DNA of 64,000 nucleotides. Source: a virus. Position 1 is the stretch's first letter. The number at the start of each line of letters is the position of its first letter. A program made the translations under genes and the position numbers. The stretch lies in IMG/VR virus record IMGVR_UViG_3300018059_000546; one strand, written 5' to 3'. The notes beneath the pieces are model-generated. The model had not been told where the DNA came from, did not search any database, and saw only the letters and a list, made by a program, of their open reading frames with translations. Positions 2,628 to 58,566 of this stretch are shown piece after piece.

Positions 2628-3011
2628 TCAGACCTCGAAGGCCTTGCGCAAACGTTCTACAGCTTCCTGAACTAACGAAATTTGCCTCTTCTCGATCAGG
2701 GGGAGACTTTCGATGGAATGGTAGCCCGTAGCAAGGATCTCACCTTGCTGCGGAACAGGATCTTGTTCAGGATCGAGCGGAAGGGCGAACCATACGGACA
2801 TTCTACCTTCTTCACCCATGAAACCTATGATCTCGACCTCGATAGAAGTTTCCTCGAGGGTCTCTCGAATGGCCGCAGCCTCTGGATCCTCACCCTCTTC
2901 GACCCCGCCTTTCGGGAATCCCCACTCCTCGCCATTCTCTGTGACGAGGAGGATCTGAATGCTATCCTCTCCAAACCTGATCACTGCGCAGCCGCAAACG
3001 TCCTTCGTCAT
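2628..3011 (-). CDS. NUDIX hydrolase
   Basis: Nudix box FPKGGVEEGEDPEAAAIRETLEETSI. Confidence 0.92.
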   Translation of the reverse strand: MTKDVCGCAVIRFGEDSIQILLVTENGEEWGFPKGGVEEGEDPEAAAIRETLEETSIEVEIIGFMGEEGRMSVWFALPLDPEQDPVPQQGEILATGYHSIESLPLIEKRQISLVQEAVERLRKAFEV

Positions 3012-3850
3012 CTAACGGCCTTCCTGTTAACACGCAAGAAATAACGTCCTTGCTTCGAATTAGCACATTCTATATCGTTCTTTCGATGGAATTCAAGAAC
3101 ATCGCGGCTAGGATCGAAAACGCAAATTCCGACGCAGGTTGAGAATTCTCTCTCGAGTGCTTCTTTTTTGAACTCTTCCCTGAAGATTTCTATCGAGCCG
3201 AAAATTCGTTCGATGCTAGAAGTGTGTTTGTCCAAGAGTTCGTCAGTGATCTTGTTTGCGAATTCCCGATCGATCGACGAGAGCTTGAATGCTGTTTCTG
3301 AAGAACTGTAGCTGGTAGCAGCAGATGTTCCCATTCGGGCCACTTGACGGGCACGATCTATTTTCTTCACGTGCCATTTCTCTCCCATAAGAGAAACGTC
3401 CTCTCTACCCCCGAAAGAACAGGAAGCATCTACCACCATAAACAACAAAACGACCTCACCCGCTCCAAGAGGGGGGCCGCGGTACGAACCCTCTATGCGG
3501 GCGATATCAAGAAGAGGTTTGGGAATGGAAACGAAGCTCAGGCTCTCAGGACGGCGATCGAGCAAAAAGCACGCATCAAAAAACTCCTTTTGATCCCAAT
3601 CAAGGATGCGATCAATGACGTCTGCTGCCAAGCGCACATCGAACATTGCGAGAGATGAAACTACAGCTCTAACAAGTTCCGACTTAGTGTGATCGATTTT
3701 GAAACCTATGTGCAGCCAATCGATCCACTGGTCGTTGCCGATAGGATCGTTAAGGTCGAAATTACAGCTGGTGGGAACCAGCGAAACAAGTTCGGCTTTT
3801 TGCGGAGCTGATAACCGAACCGTGCGTTGCCCGATCGTTTCGAATGACAA
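3008..3850 (-). CDS. hypothetical protein, possible degenerate PD-(D/E)xK fold
   Basis: 280 aa; GAGE...REDV...WHVKK pattern is only suggestive. Confidence 0.5.
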   Translation of the reverse strand: MSFETIGQRTVRLSAPQKAELVSLVPTSCNFDLNDPIGNDQWIDWLHIGFKIDHTKSELVRAVVSSLAMFDVRLAADVIDRILDWDQKEFFDACFLLDRRPESLSFVSIPKPLLDIARIEGSYRGPPLGAGEVVLLFMVVDASCSFGGREDVSLMGEKWHVKKIDRARQVARMGTSAATSYSSSETAFKLSSIDREFANKITDELLDKHTSSIERIFGSIEIFREEFKKEALEREFSTCVGICVFDPSRDVLEFHRKNDIECANSKQGRYFLRVNRKAVR

Positions 3851-15973: not shown

Positions 15974-16789
15974 TCATTCTGTCTCCGTTAGCCATTTGGT
16001 GAATTTGAACTCCTGCGGAACTGGTATGTAGTTCTTGTCGCGACCATATCGTTCGGGCCTTCGTAGAAAATCTACTTCTTCGTGGCCAGAAATCCGAGGG
16101 CACTCGATAGGTTCGAACTTGTCGCCATCCAGGATTTTCTGAAGAAGTTCAAAATGACGTTCGTACACGTGGAACGAATCTGCGATGTGAAAGTAATTTC
16201 CGTACTGCAAATTTGGATACGCCGCCTTCATCGTGTTGAACATCATCTCATGGATGAAGCTGAAAGCCGGCGCGTCGTTCCCCATTCCGAAAACAGCATC
16301 CTGCGAGCGCATGTGAACGCTCATATTGAGAACGTCGTTTCGAATTCTGAAATTGATAGAGTACGTGCAGGGCACGTCATTAGTATCCGAAAGGAGATGT
16401 TCTCTCGATAGAATCGAAATGCTAGCGCGGCGAGTGTCTTTGTCGCTTATCAAGGACTCGACGCACTTGTCGAACTGGCTAATTTCACCGAATACGTACT
16501 GACCGTAGTTCGAGTTGATAGATCCGTCCTTGTTGACGACATCTCTCCAAATCTTCGCATGCTCGCAGATGGACGTATCGAATCGATCACCCTTCAAATA
16601 CCAAAGGAACTCCCTTTTGCAATATGGAAGACTTAGTTTCCTCGAAGAGAAATTTTGAAATCTAACATAGGGAGGAAGTTCGTAGTTGAAATTTTCGACT
16701 TCAATCACCAATTGATTTCGGGGCGCAACTTTCTGTCCGTGTTTTGACAAGCGATCGAATATCGATCGAAAAACAATCTCATCATTCAT
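15974..16789 (-). CDS. thymidylate-synthase-family dCMP hydroxymethylase (T4 gp42-like)
   Basis: NSNYG, DTRRA, DVPCT catalytic Cys, MRSQDAVFGMGND (Asp at the specificity position, as in gp42 RSNDVVFGFRND), SFHVYERH. Confidence 0.82.
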   Translation of the reverse strand: MNDEIVFRSIFDRLSKHGQKVAPRNQLVIEVENFNYELPPYVRFQNFSSRKLSLPYCKREFLWYLKGDRFDTSICEHAKIWRDVVNKDGSINSNYGQYVFGEISQFDKCVESLISDKDTRRASISILSREHLLSDTNDVPCTYSINFRIRNDVLNMSVHMRSQDAVFGMGNDAPAFSFIHEMMFNTMKAAYPNLQYGNYFHIADSFHVYERHFELLQKILDGDKFEPIECPRISGHEEVDFLRRPERYGRDKNYIPVPQEFKFTKWLTETE

Positions 16790-17730
16790 GCGCAAAACCT
16801 TTCTAGAAAAACTGACTTGTCAGGTTGGTGGTTGAATTCGACATCTGTTATTCGAACTAACTTCAAAATCTTCTTCGCAAACCAATCGTTCTGACTTTGA
16901 TCAGTCTTCCATTTTTGGAGGATCTTTTTATCACGCAAAGAAGAACTTTGTTCGATTTCTAGAATTGGTCTATCAAGTCCATGCCAATAAACTCCGTCAA
17001 ATTGGACGTAGCAATTAGTGGGTTTGATATAGAAATCAATAGGCCAACGACCGTTTACAACGACAGAGCGTTGTATATCAACTACTTCAAAATGTTTCAA
17101 CAAGAATTCGTAAAACTTTTCTTCGTCCTTCGAAGAATGAATTGGTTGAGTTTCTAAAAGAGTTTGGAATCTTCTGGCGTTTACTTCGGGAGTGTGGCCC
17201 ATCTTAATGGTTGTTGGGAGCTGTAAGATACAATCTACTCCGTAATCTCTTTGAACAGTTTCTTTACGTTTTTGTGCTGCGACAACCGAAGACGTTGCTT
17301 TAATGGCTCTTTCAAGAACAGAAGCAATTTCAAATGGCGTGCGTACACCGTGATTTTTCAAAAAAGTTGTTTGAGATTTTTCAACAATTTCAGGAAGTTT
17401 AAACGGGTGGTCGACTCCGTATAGTTCTATCCATGTCGCTTTGCGATTTTCCTTTGCATTTTCAGAAATGCAACTTTCTCTAACGTGAGGAATTAGAGTG
17501 GGTTCTTCAACCCCATATTCTCTCAACAAAGTTGACTTCATCTTTTCTCGAAGCGGTTGTCCTTTGCGGTAACCGATCTTTTTGCACTCTTTTGAACAAA
17601 AATGTATAGCGTCTATACCCCCACTAGCATAGTGAGGTCGTTCAAAGTTTGTTTTGCAGATTTCGCACTTTAGGACGACGACGATTCGTTTTCGAGCAGA
17701 ATTAGTTTGTCGATATTCAACTACGCTCAT
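16786..17730 (-). mobile_element. homing endonuclease, Vsr/DUF559-like C-terminal domain with YGV repeats
   Basis: CxxC/FCSxxC, YGV repeats, WPIDFYI..VQFDGVYWHGLDRP; AT-rich. Confidence 0.8.
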
Positions 17731-18662
17731 TCTTTATCACCGAACATCCACTGCCGGGTCTTCTCTACACCCTCCCAGAAGGGGACCAAGACCTTGTATC
17801 CGAGCACGTCCTGGGCTCTTGAGATGTCTGCTCTTGTTCTAAAAACGTCGCCCTTGCGAGCAGGAGCATTTACAACTTGACAATTGGAATAGCGTTCACG
17901 AAACCATGCAAGAATTTCGTTGTTCGTTACGATCGTCCCAGTTCCTGCATTAAACGCTTCTCCTACAAATTTTCCTTCGTAGATAGCGCATCGATACATG
18001 ATGTCGACGACATTGTCGACGTATGTTACGTCGCGAGATTGTTCCCCCGTTCCGTCTGAACGAAGTTGACGCCCATCTTTTACAGCACCGAACCATGCAG
18101 CAACAGCCGTAGCGTAAGGACTATCTCCACGACTATTCGGACCGAACACATTGAATGGTCGAACCGAAACCGTGTCCATCCCGTACAATTCTGAAAACAG
18201 CTTACAATATTGTTCTGTAACGCTCTTTTGTAGCGCATACGGCGACGACGGAGCATGAATCGTATGTTCGGGCGTCGGAAGTCTGGTAGCGTTTCCGTAC
18301 ACCGACGAGGAGGACGTATTGACAAAACGGCGGATATTTCCTCTGGCGGCTTCCATCAATTTCAGAGTTTTGCTGACGTTCGTATCGTTTGTTTCGAACG
18401 GATGTTCGACGGAATACCCAACCCGAGGTTTCGCTGCAAGGTGAAAAATGACGTCGAATTTCTTAGCTCGAACCATATCGCAGACGAAATCGGAGGCGAA
18501 ATCCTGGATGTAGTAGTTCTCGAATCCTTCAGGGAGGAACCCGATTTCTCCCGCAGACATGTCGTCTACGCCAGTTACGTCCCATCCCTCATCAAGCATT
18601 CTCTTCGTGAGGTTACTCCCGATGAATCCTGCACAGCCCGTGATCAAACAGCGTCTAAGCAT
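17727..18662 (-). CDS. NAD-dependent nucleotide-sugar epimerase/dehydratase (extended SDR)
   Basis: TGCAGFIG, HLAA, SSSSVYG, YALQK, RPFNVFGP. Confidence 0.93.
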   Translation of the reverse strand: MLRRCLITGCAGFIGSNLTKRMLDEGWDVTGVDDMSAGEIGFLPEGFENYYIQDFASDFVCDMVRAKKFDVIFHLAAKPRVGYSVEHPFETNDTNVSKTLKLMEAARGNIRRFVNTSSSSVYGNATRLPTPEHTIHAPSSPYALQKSVTEQYCKLFSELYGMDTVSVRPFNVFGPNSRGDSPYATAVAAWFGAVKDGRQLRSDGTGEQSRDVTYVDNVVDIMYRCAIYEGKFVGEAFNAGTGTIVTNNEILAWFRERYSNCQVVNAPARKGDVFRTRADISRAQDVLGYKVLVPFWEGVEKTRQWMFGDKE

Positions 18663-18958
18663 TTTTCCTCTTTAGTTGTTTTAATCGATTTTTTCAAAGA
18701 TTGAAATTCCAATCGTCCTTCTGTGCAACTGCCGTATATTCGATAGCAAATGCATATCACTCCAGAAGAAGTCAAAGCAATAATTCGATACGTGTCAAGA
18801 GAAGACCAGTTGTAACCTTTCTCGACCGGAAAAACTTCGACGATCGTAATCTGTTCGTCCAAAAACGAAAAATTAGGACCGTCGTAATCTTCTAAAGACT
18901 TCACGATCACCGGAGTATAGCTCTCGGTGCATCCTAATTTCCTCAATGTGGTGATCAT
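18644..18958 (-). CDS. hypothetical protein
   Basis: ATGA-coupled. Confidence 0.55.
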   Translation of the reverse strand: MITTLRKLGCTESYTPVIVKSLEDYDGPNFSFLDEQITIVEVFPVEKGYNWSSLDTYRIIALTSSGVICICYRIYGSCTEGRLEFQSLKKSIKTTKEEKCLDAV

Positions 18959-19191
18959 TTCTCTTCTCCCAAATCCAAGACCTTGAATGTCCCGTAATAG
19001 CTCGTTTGCACCTGTTTCTTGCCGTAGCGAGTCATCATTCCCTTGCGCACAGCAAAGTCCTCAGGTTTGAGGAAGACCTTCGATACTTGTAATGGAACGT
19101 ACGCGTAACCTGCGTTTGGCATGCGTGTAGCTTTGCGTTTTCTAAACCTTCGGAAGAACGCAAGAACTGCTCTGCAATACTTTCGAAACAT
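18955..19191 (-). CDS. small protein resembling the C-terminal segment of gp23-type major capsid protein
   Basis: GYAYVPLQVS..F..PEDFAVRKGMMTRYGKK.V...YYG. Confidence 0.7.
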   Translation of the reverse strand: MFRKYCRAVLAFFRRFRKRKATRMPNAGYAYVPLQVSKVFLKPEDFAVRKGMMTRYGKKQVQTSYYGTFKVLDLGEEK

Positions 19192-19206
19192 CTTCTACAA
19201 TATACC

Positions 19207-19428
19207 TCAGTGGTCGCTCAAACAGTCGCAACAAAAACATTCTCCGCCCCACATCCCCAGGTCGTCACCGTCAGGATGACTATCAATATCAGGTCCCGGA
19301 ATGTGATTTAGAATTGCGTACAACATCGTATCTAAAAACTCTCCGTTCCACTTACGATCCCAAGCGTAGGAAATTCTAGCTTCTACACTGGGAGCATCCT
19401 TTGGCCAACATATGGTGGTCAATTCCAC
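19207..19428 (-). CDS. hypothetical protein, Cys-rich C-terminus
   Basis: 73-aa ORF ending ECFCCDCLSDH. Confidence 0.55.
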   Translation of the reverse strand: MELTTICWPKDAPSVEARISYAWDRKWNGEFLDTMLYAILNHIPGPDIDSHPDGDDLGMWGGECFCCDCLSDH

Positions 19429-20105
19429 AACCCCCGACGGATCTTCATGAGACGAGTGAGCATTTCGTCTTCCTTAGCTTCGAAATCGTCCCACCTGGTG
19501 AGAGTCGCCTTGGTAGCTTCGGGTGAAGTGTAATCGTCCGAGTTCGACATGCGAATGAAATCGCTCTTACGATCGACGTTCCACCACTTGTAGATAGCGA
19601 TAGCTTCTCTGTACAGTGCGCAATTGTCTTCTAAGGTTCCTCGTCCGGGATCATCCGCATGTGTCGCAACCAATTGAGATTCTAACCACTCCAAATGTTG
19701 GGGAGCGTTCGTTTCCGTGATGAATCTATTGAGAGAATTCATGCAAGCGTACAAAATCTCTGATAGCGGGTCGATGTACCCACCGGAGTAATCATCGCAT
19801 CCCTCGACCCAAGACACCTGACGAAGGTCCAACATGTGGGTGCGGCGAATGAGAGTGTCTCTCACATACCATCGCAACTCCCGCAGGGGCATCGTAACAT
19901 GCACGACGAACCAGTGAACGAACGTTTCCATAATGAAGTACCGCACGGGGTACTTCGCCTTCATCTCCTTGTGGTAGTCTTCCCACGTCCACCCCAAGAC
20001 GTCGGGTTGGAATCGACGGATCGGAAGTGCATTACTCTCTGACCAACCCAGGTCGACCACGCTAGGAAGCGAGATAGCCTTCTTCAGTCTCTTCAATACG
20101 TTCAT
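19419..20105 (-). CDS. hypothetical phage protein
   Basis: 228 aa ending EMLTRLMKIRRGLW. Confidence 0.65.
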   Translation of the reverse strand: MNVLKRLKKAISLPSVVDLGWSESNALPIRRFQPDVLGWTWEDYHKEMKAKYPVRYFIMETFVHWFVVHVTMPLRELRWYVRDTLIRRTHMLDLRQVSWVEGCDDYSGGYIDPLSEILYACMNSLNRFITETNAPQHLEWLESQLVATHADDPGRGTLEDNCALYREAIAIYKWWNVDRKSDFIRMSNSDDYTSPEATKATLTRWDDFEAKEDEMLTRLMKIRRGLWN

Positions 20106-20108
20106 TGT

Positions 20109-20717
20109 TTATCCAAACTTGACATCCACGTTCACCTTCACGTTGAATTCAGGGATGCGGACAGATGTCGCTACCTTGTGTTTGAGAGCTTCGTCGGGCG
20201 CGAGGAACCAATCTGCGTGGCCCCGTGCATGGATGGCATCGAGAAAGTACGTGTCCGAATGTCCGCAGTTCCTAGCGATCATCTTGAACACCAACTGGTT
20301 CAACCTTTCGCTTTCCTCCGCGCTCGCCTTGATTTCTTCGATCTTTCCATGATTGAAACTTGATACGTCGTGAAACATGAGTGTTGCCGCCGGTCCCATG
20401 AACCGCAATCCGTCAGACCCCATGGCGAAAAGCATCGCTCCGCAAGACATGGCCTTTCCAACGACGATGGTTGCGACAGGCTTCTTGCAGTGCTTTACCA
20501 CATCGATCATCGCCAGAAGAGCGTATGCTTCGCCACCGTAAGAATCGATGATGATGGGTACGACTGCTTGATTCCTCTGCTCAGTTTCCATCATCAAAGT
20601 CGTGAACGCTTTCACGGACTCCTCATCGAACTTGTTCACGTACACGAAGGATGGAACGTCGATGAGCTCTTCGAGCTTACGAACTTTGATGTTGGGATCG
20701 ATATCGTACTTTCTCAT
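20109..20717 (-). CDS. clpP: ClpP-like serine protease
   Basis: IDSYGG, AMSCG (catalytic Ser), MFHD; start revised to 20717 (TAATG). Confidence 0.88.
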   Translation of the reverse strand: MRKYDIDPNIKVRKLEELIDVPSFVYVNKFDEESVKAFTTLMMETEQRNQAVVPIIIDSYGGEAYALLAMIDVVKHCKKPVATIVVGKAMSCGAMLFAMGSDGLRFMGPAATLMFHDVSSFNHGKIEEIKASAEESERLNQLVFKMIARNCGHSDTYFLDAIHARGHADWFLAPDEALKHKVATSVRIPEFNVKVNVDVKFG

Positions 20718-21043
20718 TAGAAGCTCACCGAGTTTCCACAACCACATGATCCTGAAGATTTCGGATTGTTAAATTTGAATCCGCCGCCGACCAGATCTTC
20801 TAGATAGTCGATCTCCGAACCATCCAGATATTGGAGGCTCATTTGATCTACTACGATACGAACACCATCGTGATCGAATACCTCATCGATATCGCTGATC
20901 TTGTCCTCATCATCAAAAAAGAATTCTGTAGTAAATCCAGCGCATCCCCCACCACTAAGTTTTGCTCGAACAATACATGCGCACGCATCGGCAGTTGCAA
21001 TTTCAATCAGTTTTTGGTGAGCTTTTTGTGTTAAAGATAACAT
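20717..21043 (-). CDS. A-type Fe-S carrier protein (HesB/IscA/ErpA)
   Basis: GGGCAGF, IDY, FNNP, SCGCGNS. Confidence 0.93.
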   Translation of the reverse strand: MLSLTQKAHQKLIEIATADACACIVRAKLSGGGCAGFTTEFFFDDEDKISDIDEVFDHDGVRIVVDQMSLQYLDGSEIDYLEDLVGGGFKFNNPKSSGSCGCGNSVSF

Positions 21044-21941
21044 CTTTCCATTCTTCTCTTTTAGACATCAAATCTGTAACTCTTACAAGTTTTAGACCGT
21101 TTGTTCGAAACCATTCATCTTTTTCTCGATCATGAAGCCACTTTTTACAAATAGCAATATCAACTTTTCGTGTCGAGTTACGAATTGTTTCAATTGGTCT
21201 GTCTAGACCGTGCCAAAAAATTCCATCGAACTCTACGAATGTATCGCAATCTTCAATATAGAAATCAACGTCCCAACCACGTACGAATACATGATGAATT
21301 ACTTTTGAAAACAATTCTCGTAACTTGCTGTAGAAAATTTTTTCTGACTTCGACGAACGAATTGTACCATTCTTTTTGAATGTTTCAAAACGTTTTTTAT
21401 TTGCATCTGTCGTATGGGCTAACGCGATCACGCGCGGTAGTTGCAGTGGAGTCCTAACACCAAACTTTTCGATATGCGTCGCTTCTATTTGAGCTCGTAT
21501 CGTTGGAGATGAAAACGGATTAGAAACCCCATAACGTGCTAAATTAGTTTCTTGCGCCCTGTTTTGAAACTCAGGAACAAGCCCAGGGTTTGAATATCCG
21601 TATCTTTTCAAGAAGATGTTCTCTAAATTTCCTTTGAATTCAGGACACTGAGTGTGATATTCGACGCCGCGCTTTTTAAGATGCGTCAAACGTATTTTTG
21701 CTTTGACTTCTTCGCACGAAAAAGGATTTTCTGCACCAAATTTTTCGAGATTTGTTTTTCTAATTGTAGTTTGCACTTCAACGCTTTGAAAGGGGTTGAC
21801 AACTCCGTATCTTTCTAAGAAATGTTTTTCTTTCTTCTTTTTAAGAACACCACCATTACGTTGTGCTTCATTAACACAATTAGTTGAACAAAAATGAAAC
21901 TCTCTTTTCCGATATTTTTCTGATGTATCTTTGTCAAACAA
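21003..21941 (-). mobile_element. homing endonuclease, Vsr/DUF559-like with YGV repeats
   Basis: FCSTNC, YGV/FG repeats, WDVDFYI..VEFDGIFWHGLDRP; start uncertain. Confidence 0.8.
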
Positions 21942-58275: not shown

Positions 58276-58566
58276 CTACTGCCCAAAAATGACTAGAATA
58301 TCGTCTTCTCGGATGATAAGATATTCCTCACCATCGAACTTAATTTCTGTGCCGCTGTACTTCCCAAAGAGGATTCGATCACCGACATTCACAGTCAGGG
58401 GTACTGTGGTGCCGTCCTGAAGGAACCTTCCAGGGCCGACAGCAAGAACCTCTCCCTCAATCGGCTTTTCCTTAGCATTTCCAGGGATGATGATTCCTCC
58501 GGGAGTCATCTCAGCTTCTGGTTGACGCCTGACCACGACTCGATCGTGCAAGGGACGCGCCTTCAT
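58276..58566 (-). CDS. groES: co-chaperonin GroES
   Basis: [32 protein letters not shown]. Confidence 0.97.

Follow-up and report, generated by a model that had tools for sequence, protein, structure and literature searches.

Capsid proteins are the phage proteins that are most conserved and most heavily sensed. In phage T4, the Gol peptide, residues 93 to 122 of the major capsid protein (MCP) gp23, is a short conserved segment that is biologically active outside the capsid, in exclusion by Lit and EF-Tu. Mouse Fv1, sheep enJS56A1, and Ccm of phage-inducible chromosomal islands are large, folded capsid derivatives with a demonstrated action on the assembly or the incoming capsids of related viruses. 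The gene described here invites comparison with both. It lies on the minus strand of a 64,000-nucleotide stretch of the IMG/VR virus record IMGVR_UViG_3300018059_000546 (the window) and encodes a 78-residue protein that consists of a basic helix followed by the P-loop hairpin and the last strand of an MCP. Like the Gol peptide, this mini-protein is a short conserved MCP segment, but it comes from the C-terminal rather than the N-terminal block, and it is made from a separate gene, whereas Gol is part of the MCP itself. Like Fv1, enJS56A1, and Ccm, it is derived from a capsid protein, although as a 50-residue peptide it can be likened to them only by analogy. The MCP family of origin is already well known; stand-alone mini-genes built from MCP blocks appear so far to be undescribed, and no description of them was found in the literature searched.

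The closest described protein is the Gp23-type MCP (PF07068; T4 gp23, PDB 5VF3, 6UZC, 7VS5, and 8T9R). Residues 19 to 76 of the mini-protein are homologous to its last ~60 residues, corresponding to 575 to 634 of the phage's own MCP and to ~445 to 521 of T4 gp23, and both end at the same point. However, the mini-protein represents only ~9% of an MCP and lacks the N-arm, E-loop, spine helix, A-domain core, and insertion domain, so that it cannot form a shell. It differs further in the non-MCP basic helix placed in front, in the absence of the motifs APY and TPT, and in its location 83 kb from the head genes.

Base 1 of the window is base 68,930 of CACUWI010000001.1 (298,824 bp; GCA_902725445.1), a record from an uncultured huge phage, with identical orientation, and the same mini-gene is called on that NCBI record. 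A sequence-only reading of the window had singled out a 78-residue open reading frame (ORF) at 18955 to 19191, likened it to the C-terminal ~50 residues of an MCP, and placed it among nonstructural genes. The ORF is present with the sequence as quoted, family matches of its neighbors agree with the placement, and profile comparisons described below bear out the likeness. The mini-gene and its parts are as follows.

18955-19191, minus strand: mini-gene, 78 codons, ATG at 19191-19189 and TGA at 18957-18955; ortholog P0002 in L004 to L006, purifying selection
19141-19188, minus strand: residues 2 to 17, predicted basic amphipathic N-terminal helix (FRKYCRAVLAFFRRFR), from the structure model and ortholog conservation
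18964-19113, minus strand: residues 27 to 76, copied MCP C-terminal module (P-domain strand, P loop, return strand, last strand), from alignments
19048-19083, minus strand: residues 37 to 48, P-loop equivalent (SKVFLKPEDFAV), from alignments; the most diverged stretch of the tail
19120-19122, minus strand: internal ATG (M24), start of the 55-residue form P0001 given by another gene caller
19192-19209, minus strand: 15-nt spacer plus TGA of the upstream ORF, TGAGGTATATTGTAGAAG ahead of the ATG, with GAGG 13 nt upstream and containing TATATT
18955-18958, minus strand: ATGA overlap of the mini-gene stop and the start of the next gene, translational coupling

The Pfam model of Gp23 alone gives the mini-protein a subthreshold score (E 0.0041, 17 bits, cut-off 24.4 bits), aligning residues 31 to 66 with positions 322 to 354 of 376, and its ortholog and other mini-tails exceed the cut-off. 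With a profile built from 28 full-length MCPs (478 positions), the match is significant (E 1.2e-18) and covers positions 422 to 475; the same search detected no further MCP piece in the window at E < 1. A profile-profile comparison by hhalign, with the mini-protein and its ortholog set against the MCP alignment, returned a probability of 99.7% (E 2.7e-27) and placed residues 19 to 76 on positions 575 to 634 of the phage's own MCP. Pairwise searches agree, as BLASTP aligned residues 27 to 76 with residues 491 to 541 of 542 and 485 to 534 of 536 in two MCPs at 43 to 44% identity, and tblastn against 50,697 phage records gave 15 matches, with all annotated ones inside MCPs of T4-like or jumbo myoviruses. 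The MCP-tail alignment is coterminal with the MCP stop. On these comparisons, the capsid resemblance of the mini-protein tail is real.

The match to PF07068 holds for the tail only. At 78 residues, and with only positions 422 to 475 of the 478-position profile covered, the protein lacks a complete HK97-type fold and is derived from an MCP fragment rather than being an MCP; nor does it contain the Gol peptide, which belongs to the N-terminal block, since only the C-terminal end is matched. A search of PDB sequences with the mini-protein produced chance matches only, a word-based protein search matched it only to itself, and the GenBank phage collection and IMG/VR held no close relative of the window. 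HMMER, run on 1.84 billion representative proteins, returned 80 matches at E <= 1e-3, which comprise full-length MCPs aligned over their C termini, fragments of MCPs, and a number of short proteins. Some of these matches were set aside. The 782-residue P0003 was rejected as an MCP relative because its match is driven by repeats of the type FYPESVxKVLLQGEDQP, and P0005 (3223 residues) and P0043 (3307 residues), with 13 and 3 weak matched stretches, were treated as spurious on the same grounds from their pattern of matches. Short proteins such as P0007, P0008, P0011, and P0033, whose tails are identical to those of genuine MCPs, probably represent MCP fragments or miscalls rather than mini-genes.

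The same genome thus holds a small ORF with one conserved MCP block and, elsewhere, an intact full-length MCP. The latter lies beyond the window at L013:3631-5541 (record 170,765-172,675), ~83 kb from the mini-gene. It is a complete gene for a 636-residue PF07068 protein that has a tail (...GYVYAPYIPLIVTPTLFAPEDFTPRKGVMTRYGKKMVRSDFYGSVSVMDMNII-stop) and a C-terminal end (...FYGSVSVMDMNII-stop) of its own. A split MCP, in which the mini-gene would supply a missing C terminus, might be read from the way the fragment alignment runs to the MCP stop. That arrangement is refuted, because the phage's own MCP is complete to the identical C-terminal end; with that MCP intact and carrying its own tail, the mini-gene is not part of a split one. 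No intron, intein, or Rfam signal was found at the locus, including no Rfam intron match in 18000 to 20200.

A recent duplication of the phage's own MCP tail was also considered and rejected. Residues 30 to 74 are identical to that tail at 23 of 45 positions (51%), which is not above the 56 to 58% seen with several other MCP lineages, and this marks the mini-gene tail as old or fast-evolving rather than recently copied. It has no visible tie to the phage's own MCP. The tail lacks the APY of MCPs, a three-residue deletion that removes two invariant MCP residues, and has SKV in place of TPT. Equivalents of P592, L593, P602, F605, K609, G610, T613, R614, Y615, K617, Y625, and G626 (own-MCP numbering) are kept.

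Evidence that the mini-gene is more than a remnant comes from its ortholog. P0002, an 87-residue protein that is 52% identical to the mini-protein, aligns with the whole of it, including the non-MCP N terminus, and is encoded on three short groundwater or metagenome contigs (L004 to L006). Gene order there is that of the window, with the mini-gene followed by a small overlapping ORF and an epimerase of the short-chain dehydrogenase/reductase (SDR) family, and the 4-nt stop/start overlap of the mini-gene with the next small ORF recurs in the ortholog loci. The small ORF itself is different, with 104 residues in the window in place of 52 at the ortholog locus, and the two were judged by eye to be unrelated. 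The epimerases are 80% identical, compared to 52% for the mini-proteins.

Between the mini-gene and this one ortholog cluster, differences per nonsynonymous site (pN) amount to 0.32 and those per synonymous site (pS) to 0.83, which is saturated, so that the pN/pS of 0.39 has a saturated denominator. Differences fall on 41 of 50 synonymous and 58 of 181 nonsynonymous sites (Fisher p 4e-10) and, by codon position, at frequencies of 0.35, 0.31, and 0.62; both indels, of 9 and 3 nt, are in-frame. This pattern is not that of neutral decay. Saturated synonymous sites, low pN, and in-frame indels together therefore identify a real, selected gene, and we are highly confident that the mini-gene is an MCP-derived gene kept by selection. 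An RNA element in its place was rejected, given the lack of an Rfam match and substitutions mainly at third positions.

Conservation also bears on where translation begins. The first 23 codons are the best conserved part of the gene (pN 0.22), changing mostly at synonymous sites around the motif MxRKYCRAxLAFxRRF, and 15 of the first 20 residues are invariant relative to the ortholog, from which M24 is absent. Because the codons upstream of M24 are conserved at the protein level and M24 itself is not, comparison of the two sequences places the start at M1.

The ortholog loci carry a further element. At L004:3-278, and likewise in L005 and L006, the 3' portion of a TnpB gene (…CPKCGLVLGRDHNAARNVL…) terminates 1 nt ahead of the first ATG of the mini-gene. 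This TnpB seems distant from the one encoded by the window phage at L010:5043-6125, as judged by eye from their C-terminal ends, and no TnpB was found in the flanks of the mini-gene within the window, which does not fit an IS200/IS605 TnpB cassette bearing a displaced piece of a gene.

A structure model built by AlphaFold2 (AF2) on the family alignment gives the helix at residues 2 to 17 a confidence (predicted local distance difference test, pLDDT) of ~80 and leaves the remainder as coil at 58 to 70, with a predicted template modeling score (pTM) of 0.24; the MCP-derived tail is thus without a predicted autonomous fold. In an AF2 model of the phage's own MCP (core pLDDT 70 to 92), the homologous stretch is an extended hairpin, with strands 585-600 and 607-619 joined by the loop APEDFT, and then a terminal strand (625-631). 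Mapped onto T4 gp23 by way of the alignment between the phage's own MCP and the T4 protein, P33 of the mini-protein corresponds to A455, S37 to F40 correspond to T457 to R460, and the P-loop equivalent at residues 37 to 48 falls on 457 to 470. In gp23, the P-domain sheet substitution A455V lifts the requirement for the co-chaperonin gp31, the P-loop mutations T457A, R460C, and G461S affect head length, the P loop touches those of neighboring capsomers at quasi-threefold axes, and residues 486 to 502 form a flexible A-P linker (PMC9546572).

The origin of the basic helix was sought both within the MCP and among other proteins of the phage. It gave no second hhalign match to the MCP, and a degenerate MCP N-arm helix was rejected on that account. 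Across the 107 kb that could be read (the window plus L010 to L013, which extend ~43 kb past its end), it was found in no other ORF. A different amphipathic peptide, of the form [E/D]-[hydrophobic]-R-x-x-x-[R/K]-x-x-L and ending in E, is present in six copies near the N termini of unrelated ORFs in L010 to L013 (78285-96721 in merged, window-style coordinates). The helix was considered as a copy of this shared, capsid-targeting-like peptide ([E/D]-x-R-x-x-x-[R/K]-x-x-L), and it does not appear among the top matches of a profile made from the six copies.

Several of the short proteins matched by HMMER join non-MCP N termini to an MCP tail, with a junction that lies within ~10 residues of one point, and these are not MCP fragments cut by contig ends. 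One of them, the 78-residue P0004, is encoded on a 1.2-kb contig with at least six overlapping mini-ORFs. Its locus, L014:89-1236, and L015 (JGI 3300068483 and 3300069044) each hold a tandem array in which every mini-ORF combines a leader of ~22 residues, bearing CxCxxC(x12)C with KRGxK, with a different MCP block. The blocks stand in scrambled order: tail, spine helix, a second tail-like piece, an RKLRxxWSxE block, and an N-arm/Gol block. Between the basic helix of the window's mini-protein and the L014 leaders there is no more than a resemblance by eye (C-x-A-A-L ... K-G-R-K), and a relationship of the two was rejected. P0006 belongs to a second kind of array, at L008:860-2995 and L016:6176-8504 (IMG/VR UViG_3300033063_000067), where a leader of ~65 residues (MSLKTY...PGxW...GMxVA...VLWS) is followed by one MCP block per gene, drawn from the same set of blocks as in L014 and L015. 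The L016 array is located 3' of a gene for an 887-residue major-vault-protein-like product (MVP shoulder, E 3e-29), on a 15.8-kb contig that holds no full MCP. In L008, the leader + N-arm gene at 2339-2995 shares its 3' part, in a different reading frame, with an ORF at 2788-3318 that by eye resembles a homing endonuclease of the GIY-YIG/NUMOD3 type. The L016 counterpart of the leader + N-arm gene is without such an insert.

In a tree of MCP tails, the leader-bearing mini-tails, including that of the window, group together with weak support (66/71), P0002 joins P0006 at 99/85, and the phage's own MCP falls elsewhere. P0004 of L014/L015 and P0006, P0009, P0037, P0066, and P0080 of L008/L016 share with the window's mini-gene the same C-terminal MCP module and the format of small, translationally coupled genes. 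They differ in having other leaders and several tandem genes with other MCP blocks (N-arm/Gol, strand plus short P-domain helix, spine helix, and tail), whereas the window has the tail gene only. It is possible, though we would hold the idea loosely, that 'leader + capsid-block' mini-proteins make up a modular system in huge T4-like phages, with conserved P-domain MCP elements set on interchangeable leaders, singly or in arrays, and used as capsid mimics in conflicts, either as dominant-negative poisons of rival assembly or as sensor blockers, and that the mini-gene is a single-unit member. The elements of such a system would be the N-arm/Gol block, the short P-domain helix, the spine helix, and the P-loop hairpin, and its leaders the basic helix, the CxCxxC zinc-knuckle-like segment, and the ~65-residue beta-rich segment.

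Within the window, the mini-gene is part of a long co-directional block that also encodes, among others, the epimerase, a ClpP-like protease, a HesB/IscA-like protein, DUF7487 endonucleases, thymidylate synthase, dCMP deaminase, and thymidine kinase. Neighboring genes and sites mentioned in the text are listed here.

17727-18662, minus strand: SDR nucleotide-sugar epimerase, the syntenic anchor, with 80% amino acid identity to the ortholog-locus epimerase
18644-18958, minus strand: downstream 104-residue ORF, without a family match
19207-19428, minus strand: upstream 73-residue ORF, without a family match
16786-17730: DUF7487 endonuclease-like gene (PHROG 'homing endonuclease')
21003-21941: DUF7487 endonuclease-like gene (PHROG 'homing endonuclease')
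20109-20747: ClpP-family protease (Pfam E 6e-23; PHROGs family name head maturation protease), far from the head genes
20717-21043: HesB/IscA-like Fe-S (iron-sulfur) assembly gene, overlapping the ClpP-like gene
58276-58566: Cpn10/GroES-like co-chaperonin, counterpart of T4 gp31
846, 2625, 38130, 40684, and 58261 in the window, and further copies in L013 and L012 (record 153654-170750): TACTTA(A/T) sites

T4 requires gp31 for the folding of gp23. The two DUF7487 genes bracket a 3.3-kb block in which the mini-gene is located, and a third, at L013:9229-10008, adjoins a gp13-like neck gene ~3.7 kb from the MCP. A decayed second head module beside the ClpP-like protease was rejected, as the MCP profile finds nothing there and the neighbors have no Pfam or PHROG match.

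Among hexamers in the sense-strand intergenic gaps of the 107 kb, TACTTA shows the strongest enrichment; TACTTA(A/T) is enriched 10-fold, with 12 sense and 4 antisense copies, and most sense copies of TACTTA are 10 to 25 nt ahead of start codons, including that of a sheath-like gene. We regard TACTTA(A/T) as a candidate phage promoter element. None occurs between window positions 2,625 and 38,130, and hence none at the mini-gene. The T4 late motif TATAAATA was found nowhere, including ahead of the MCP. The sequence-only reading had also pointed to a -10-like TATATT 7 nt upstream of the gene; the motif is indeed 7 nt before the ATG, but a promoter role for it is unsupported, with no sigma-70-like site on the minus strand of the mini-gene and TACTTA absent. 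Because the mini-gene shows neither promoter signals of its own nor TACTTA, the sequence features suggest that it is probably transcribed together with the surrounding metabolic genes and separately from the head genes. With a significant gp23 match and no neutral decay, the description of the gene in the sequence-only reading, as a fragment of the MCP expressed away from the head genes, is upheld.

What could such a protein do? Because the tail keeps most near-invariant MCP residues yet cannot fold alone, we tentatively propose that the mini-protein is a mimic of the capsomer-edge MCP hairpin that acts on shell assembly. The mini-protein would bind, through strand addition or contacts of its P loop, to the usual partners of the MCP hairpin. 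Since the hairpin, part of the P-domain sheet, provides the contact between capsomers with its tip, the likeliest partners would be MCP subunits or capsomer edges at quasi-threefold contacts, either of the same phage or of a co-infecting relative. Docking may tune, delay, or poison shell assembly, and the basic helix could provide a second binding or anchoring function.

Several observations weigh against this proposal. Evolution of the mini-gene has outpaced that of the epimerase (pN 0.32 compared to 0.146, p 3e-7), and only one ortholog cluster was recovered among the 1.84 billion representatives. The gene is placed in a nucleotide-metabolism block rather than among head genes, without the TACTTA seen before several structural genes. 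Loss of TPT and of APY, with its two invariant residues, may reflect a loosening of constraint and not the tuning of an interface. Nor does the tail resemble the phage's own MCP more closely than it does others, and coevolution with that MCP is not visible. We lean toward a role in conflict, which is favored by fast evolution, patchy distribution, and a position among accessory genes and mobile elements, but these features do not separate a mimic acting on assembly from one that blocks a sensor.

The second of these possibilities, an anti-defense mimic, holds that the mini-protein is made before the MCP and occupies or blunts a host sensor of the MCP hairpin, as the decoy or titrator suggested in the sequence-only reading, which also named an assembly modulator. 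Its location in a nonstructural block that is probably not late and has no structural-gene motif would suit this role, as would a fast-evolving tail, the long branches of the leader-bearing mini-tails, and a patchy distribution. Defenses do sense conserved MCP segments; the Gol peptide of gp23 is sensed with Lit and EF-Tu, and CapRel senses an HK97-fold MCP. The residues that have been kept, however, belong mostly to the buried, invariant core and not to an epitope on the surface, Gol belongs to the N-terminal block and not to the C-terminal hairpin, and we know of no sensor of that hairpin, so that we consider an anti-defense mimic unlikely, though deserving of attention. Somewhat harder to accept is the suggestion that the basic helix is the working part, binding nucleic acid, membrane, or protein, while the MCP tail is a passenger or spacer under weak constraint. 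The helix is the sole part predicted to be ordered, three-quarters of the first 20 residues (15/20) are invariant, and its pN is 0.22 compared to 0.36 for the tail. This difference is not significant (p 0.08), and the tail has held most MCP-invariant residues across a saturated synonymous distance, with its length kept to the native MCP end and the same tail kept behind two other, unrelated leaders; we judge a helix-only function improbable.

Two further explanations have less in their favor. Rearrangement by a mobile element, either a homing endonuclease or TnpB, could have left a nonfunctional relic that stays open by chance, and the DUF7487 genes that flank the block at 16786-17730 and 21003-21941, together with the TnpB 3' end directly ahead of the ortholog, fit that history. 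Such a relic is disfavored and seems very unlikely when two copies are still 52% identical at saturated synonymous divergence, are both open, differ by in-frame indels and an excess of third-position changes, and are both coupled by ATGA to the next gene, and when the window copy has no adjoining TnpB. A link to chaperonins, in which the hairpin bears a determinant of dependence on GroEL and its co-chaperonin and the mini-protein engages the folding machinery, draws on the correspondence of P33 with the T4 gp31-bypass site A455V and on the Cpn10 homologue encoded at 58276-58566 of the window. That support is purely positional, published GroEL targeting of gp23 involves the gp23 N terminus, and we give this explanation scarcely any credence.

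Proposed here as a mimic of the capsomer-edge hairpin, the mini-gene points to which short segments of the MCP are functionally 'addressable,' and in T4 the homologous hairpin bears both head-length and chaperonin-bypass sites. If the modular reading is true, a family of selected mini-genes made only from the most conserved MCP blocks would constitute a class of viral mimic that is new, and such mini-genes could explain interference between phages during assembly or escape from capsid-sensing immunity.

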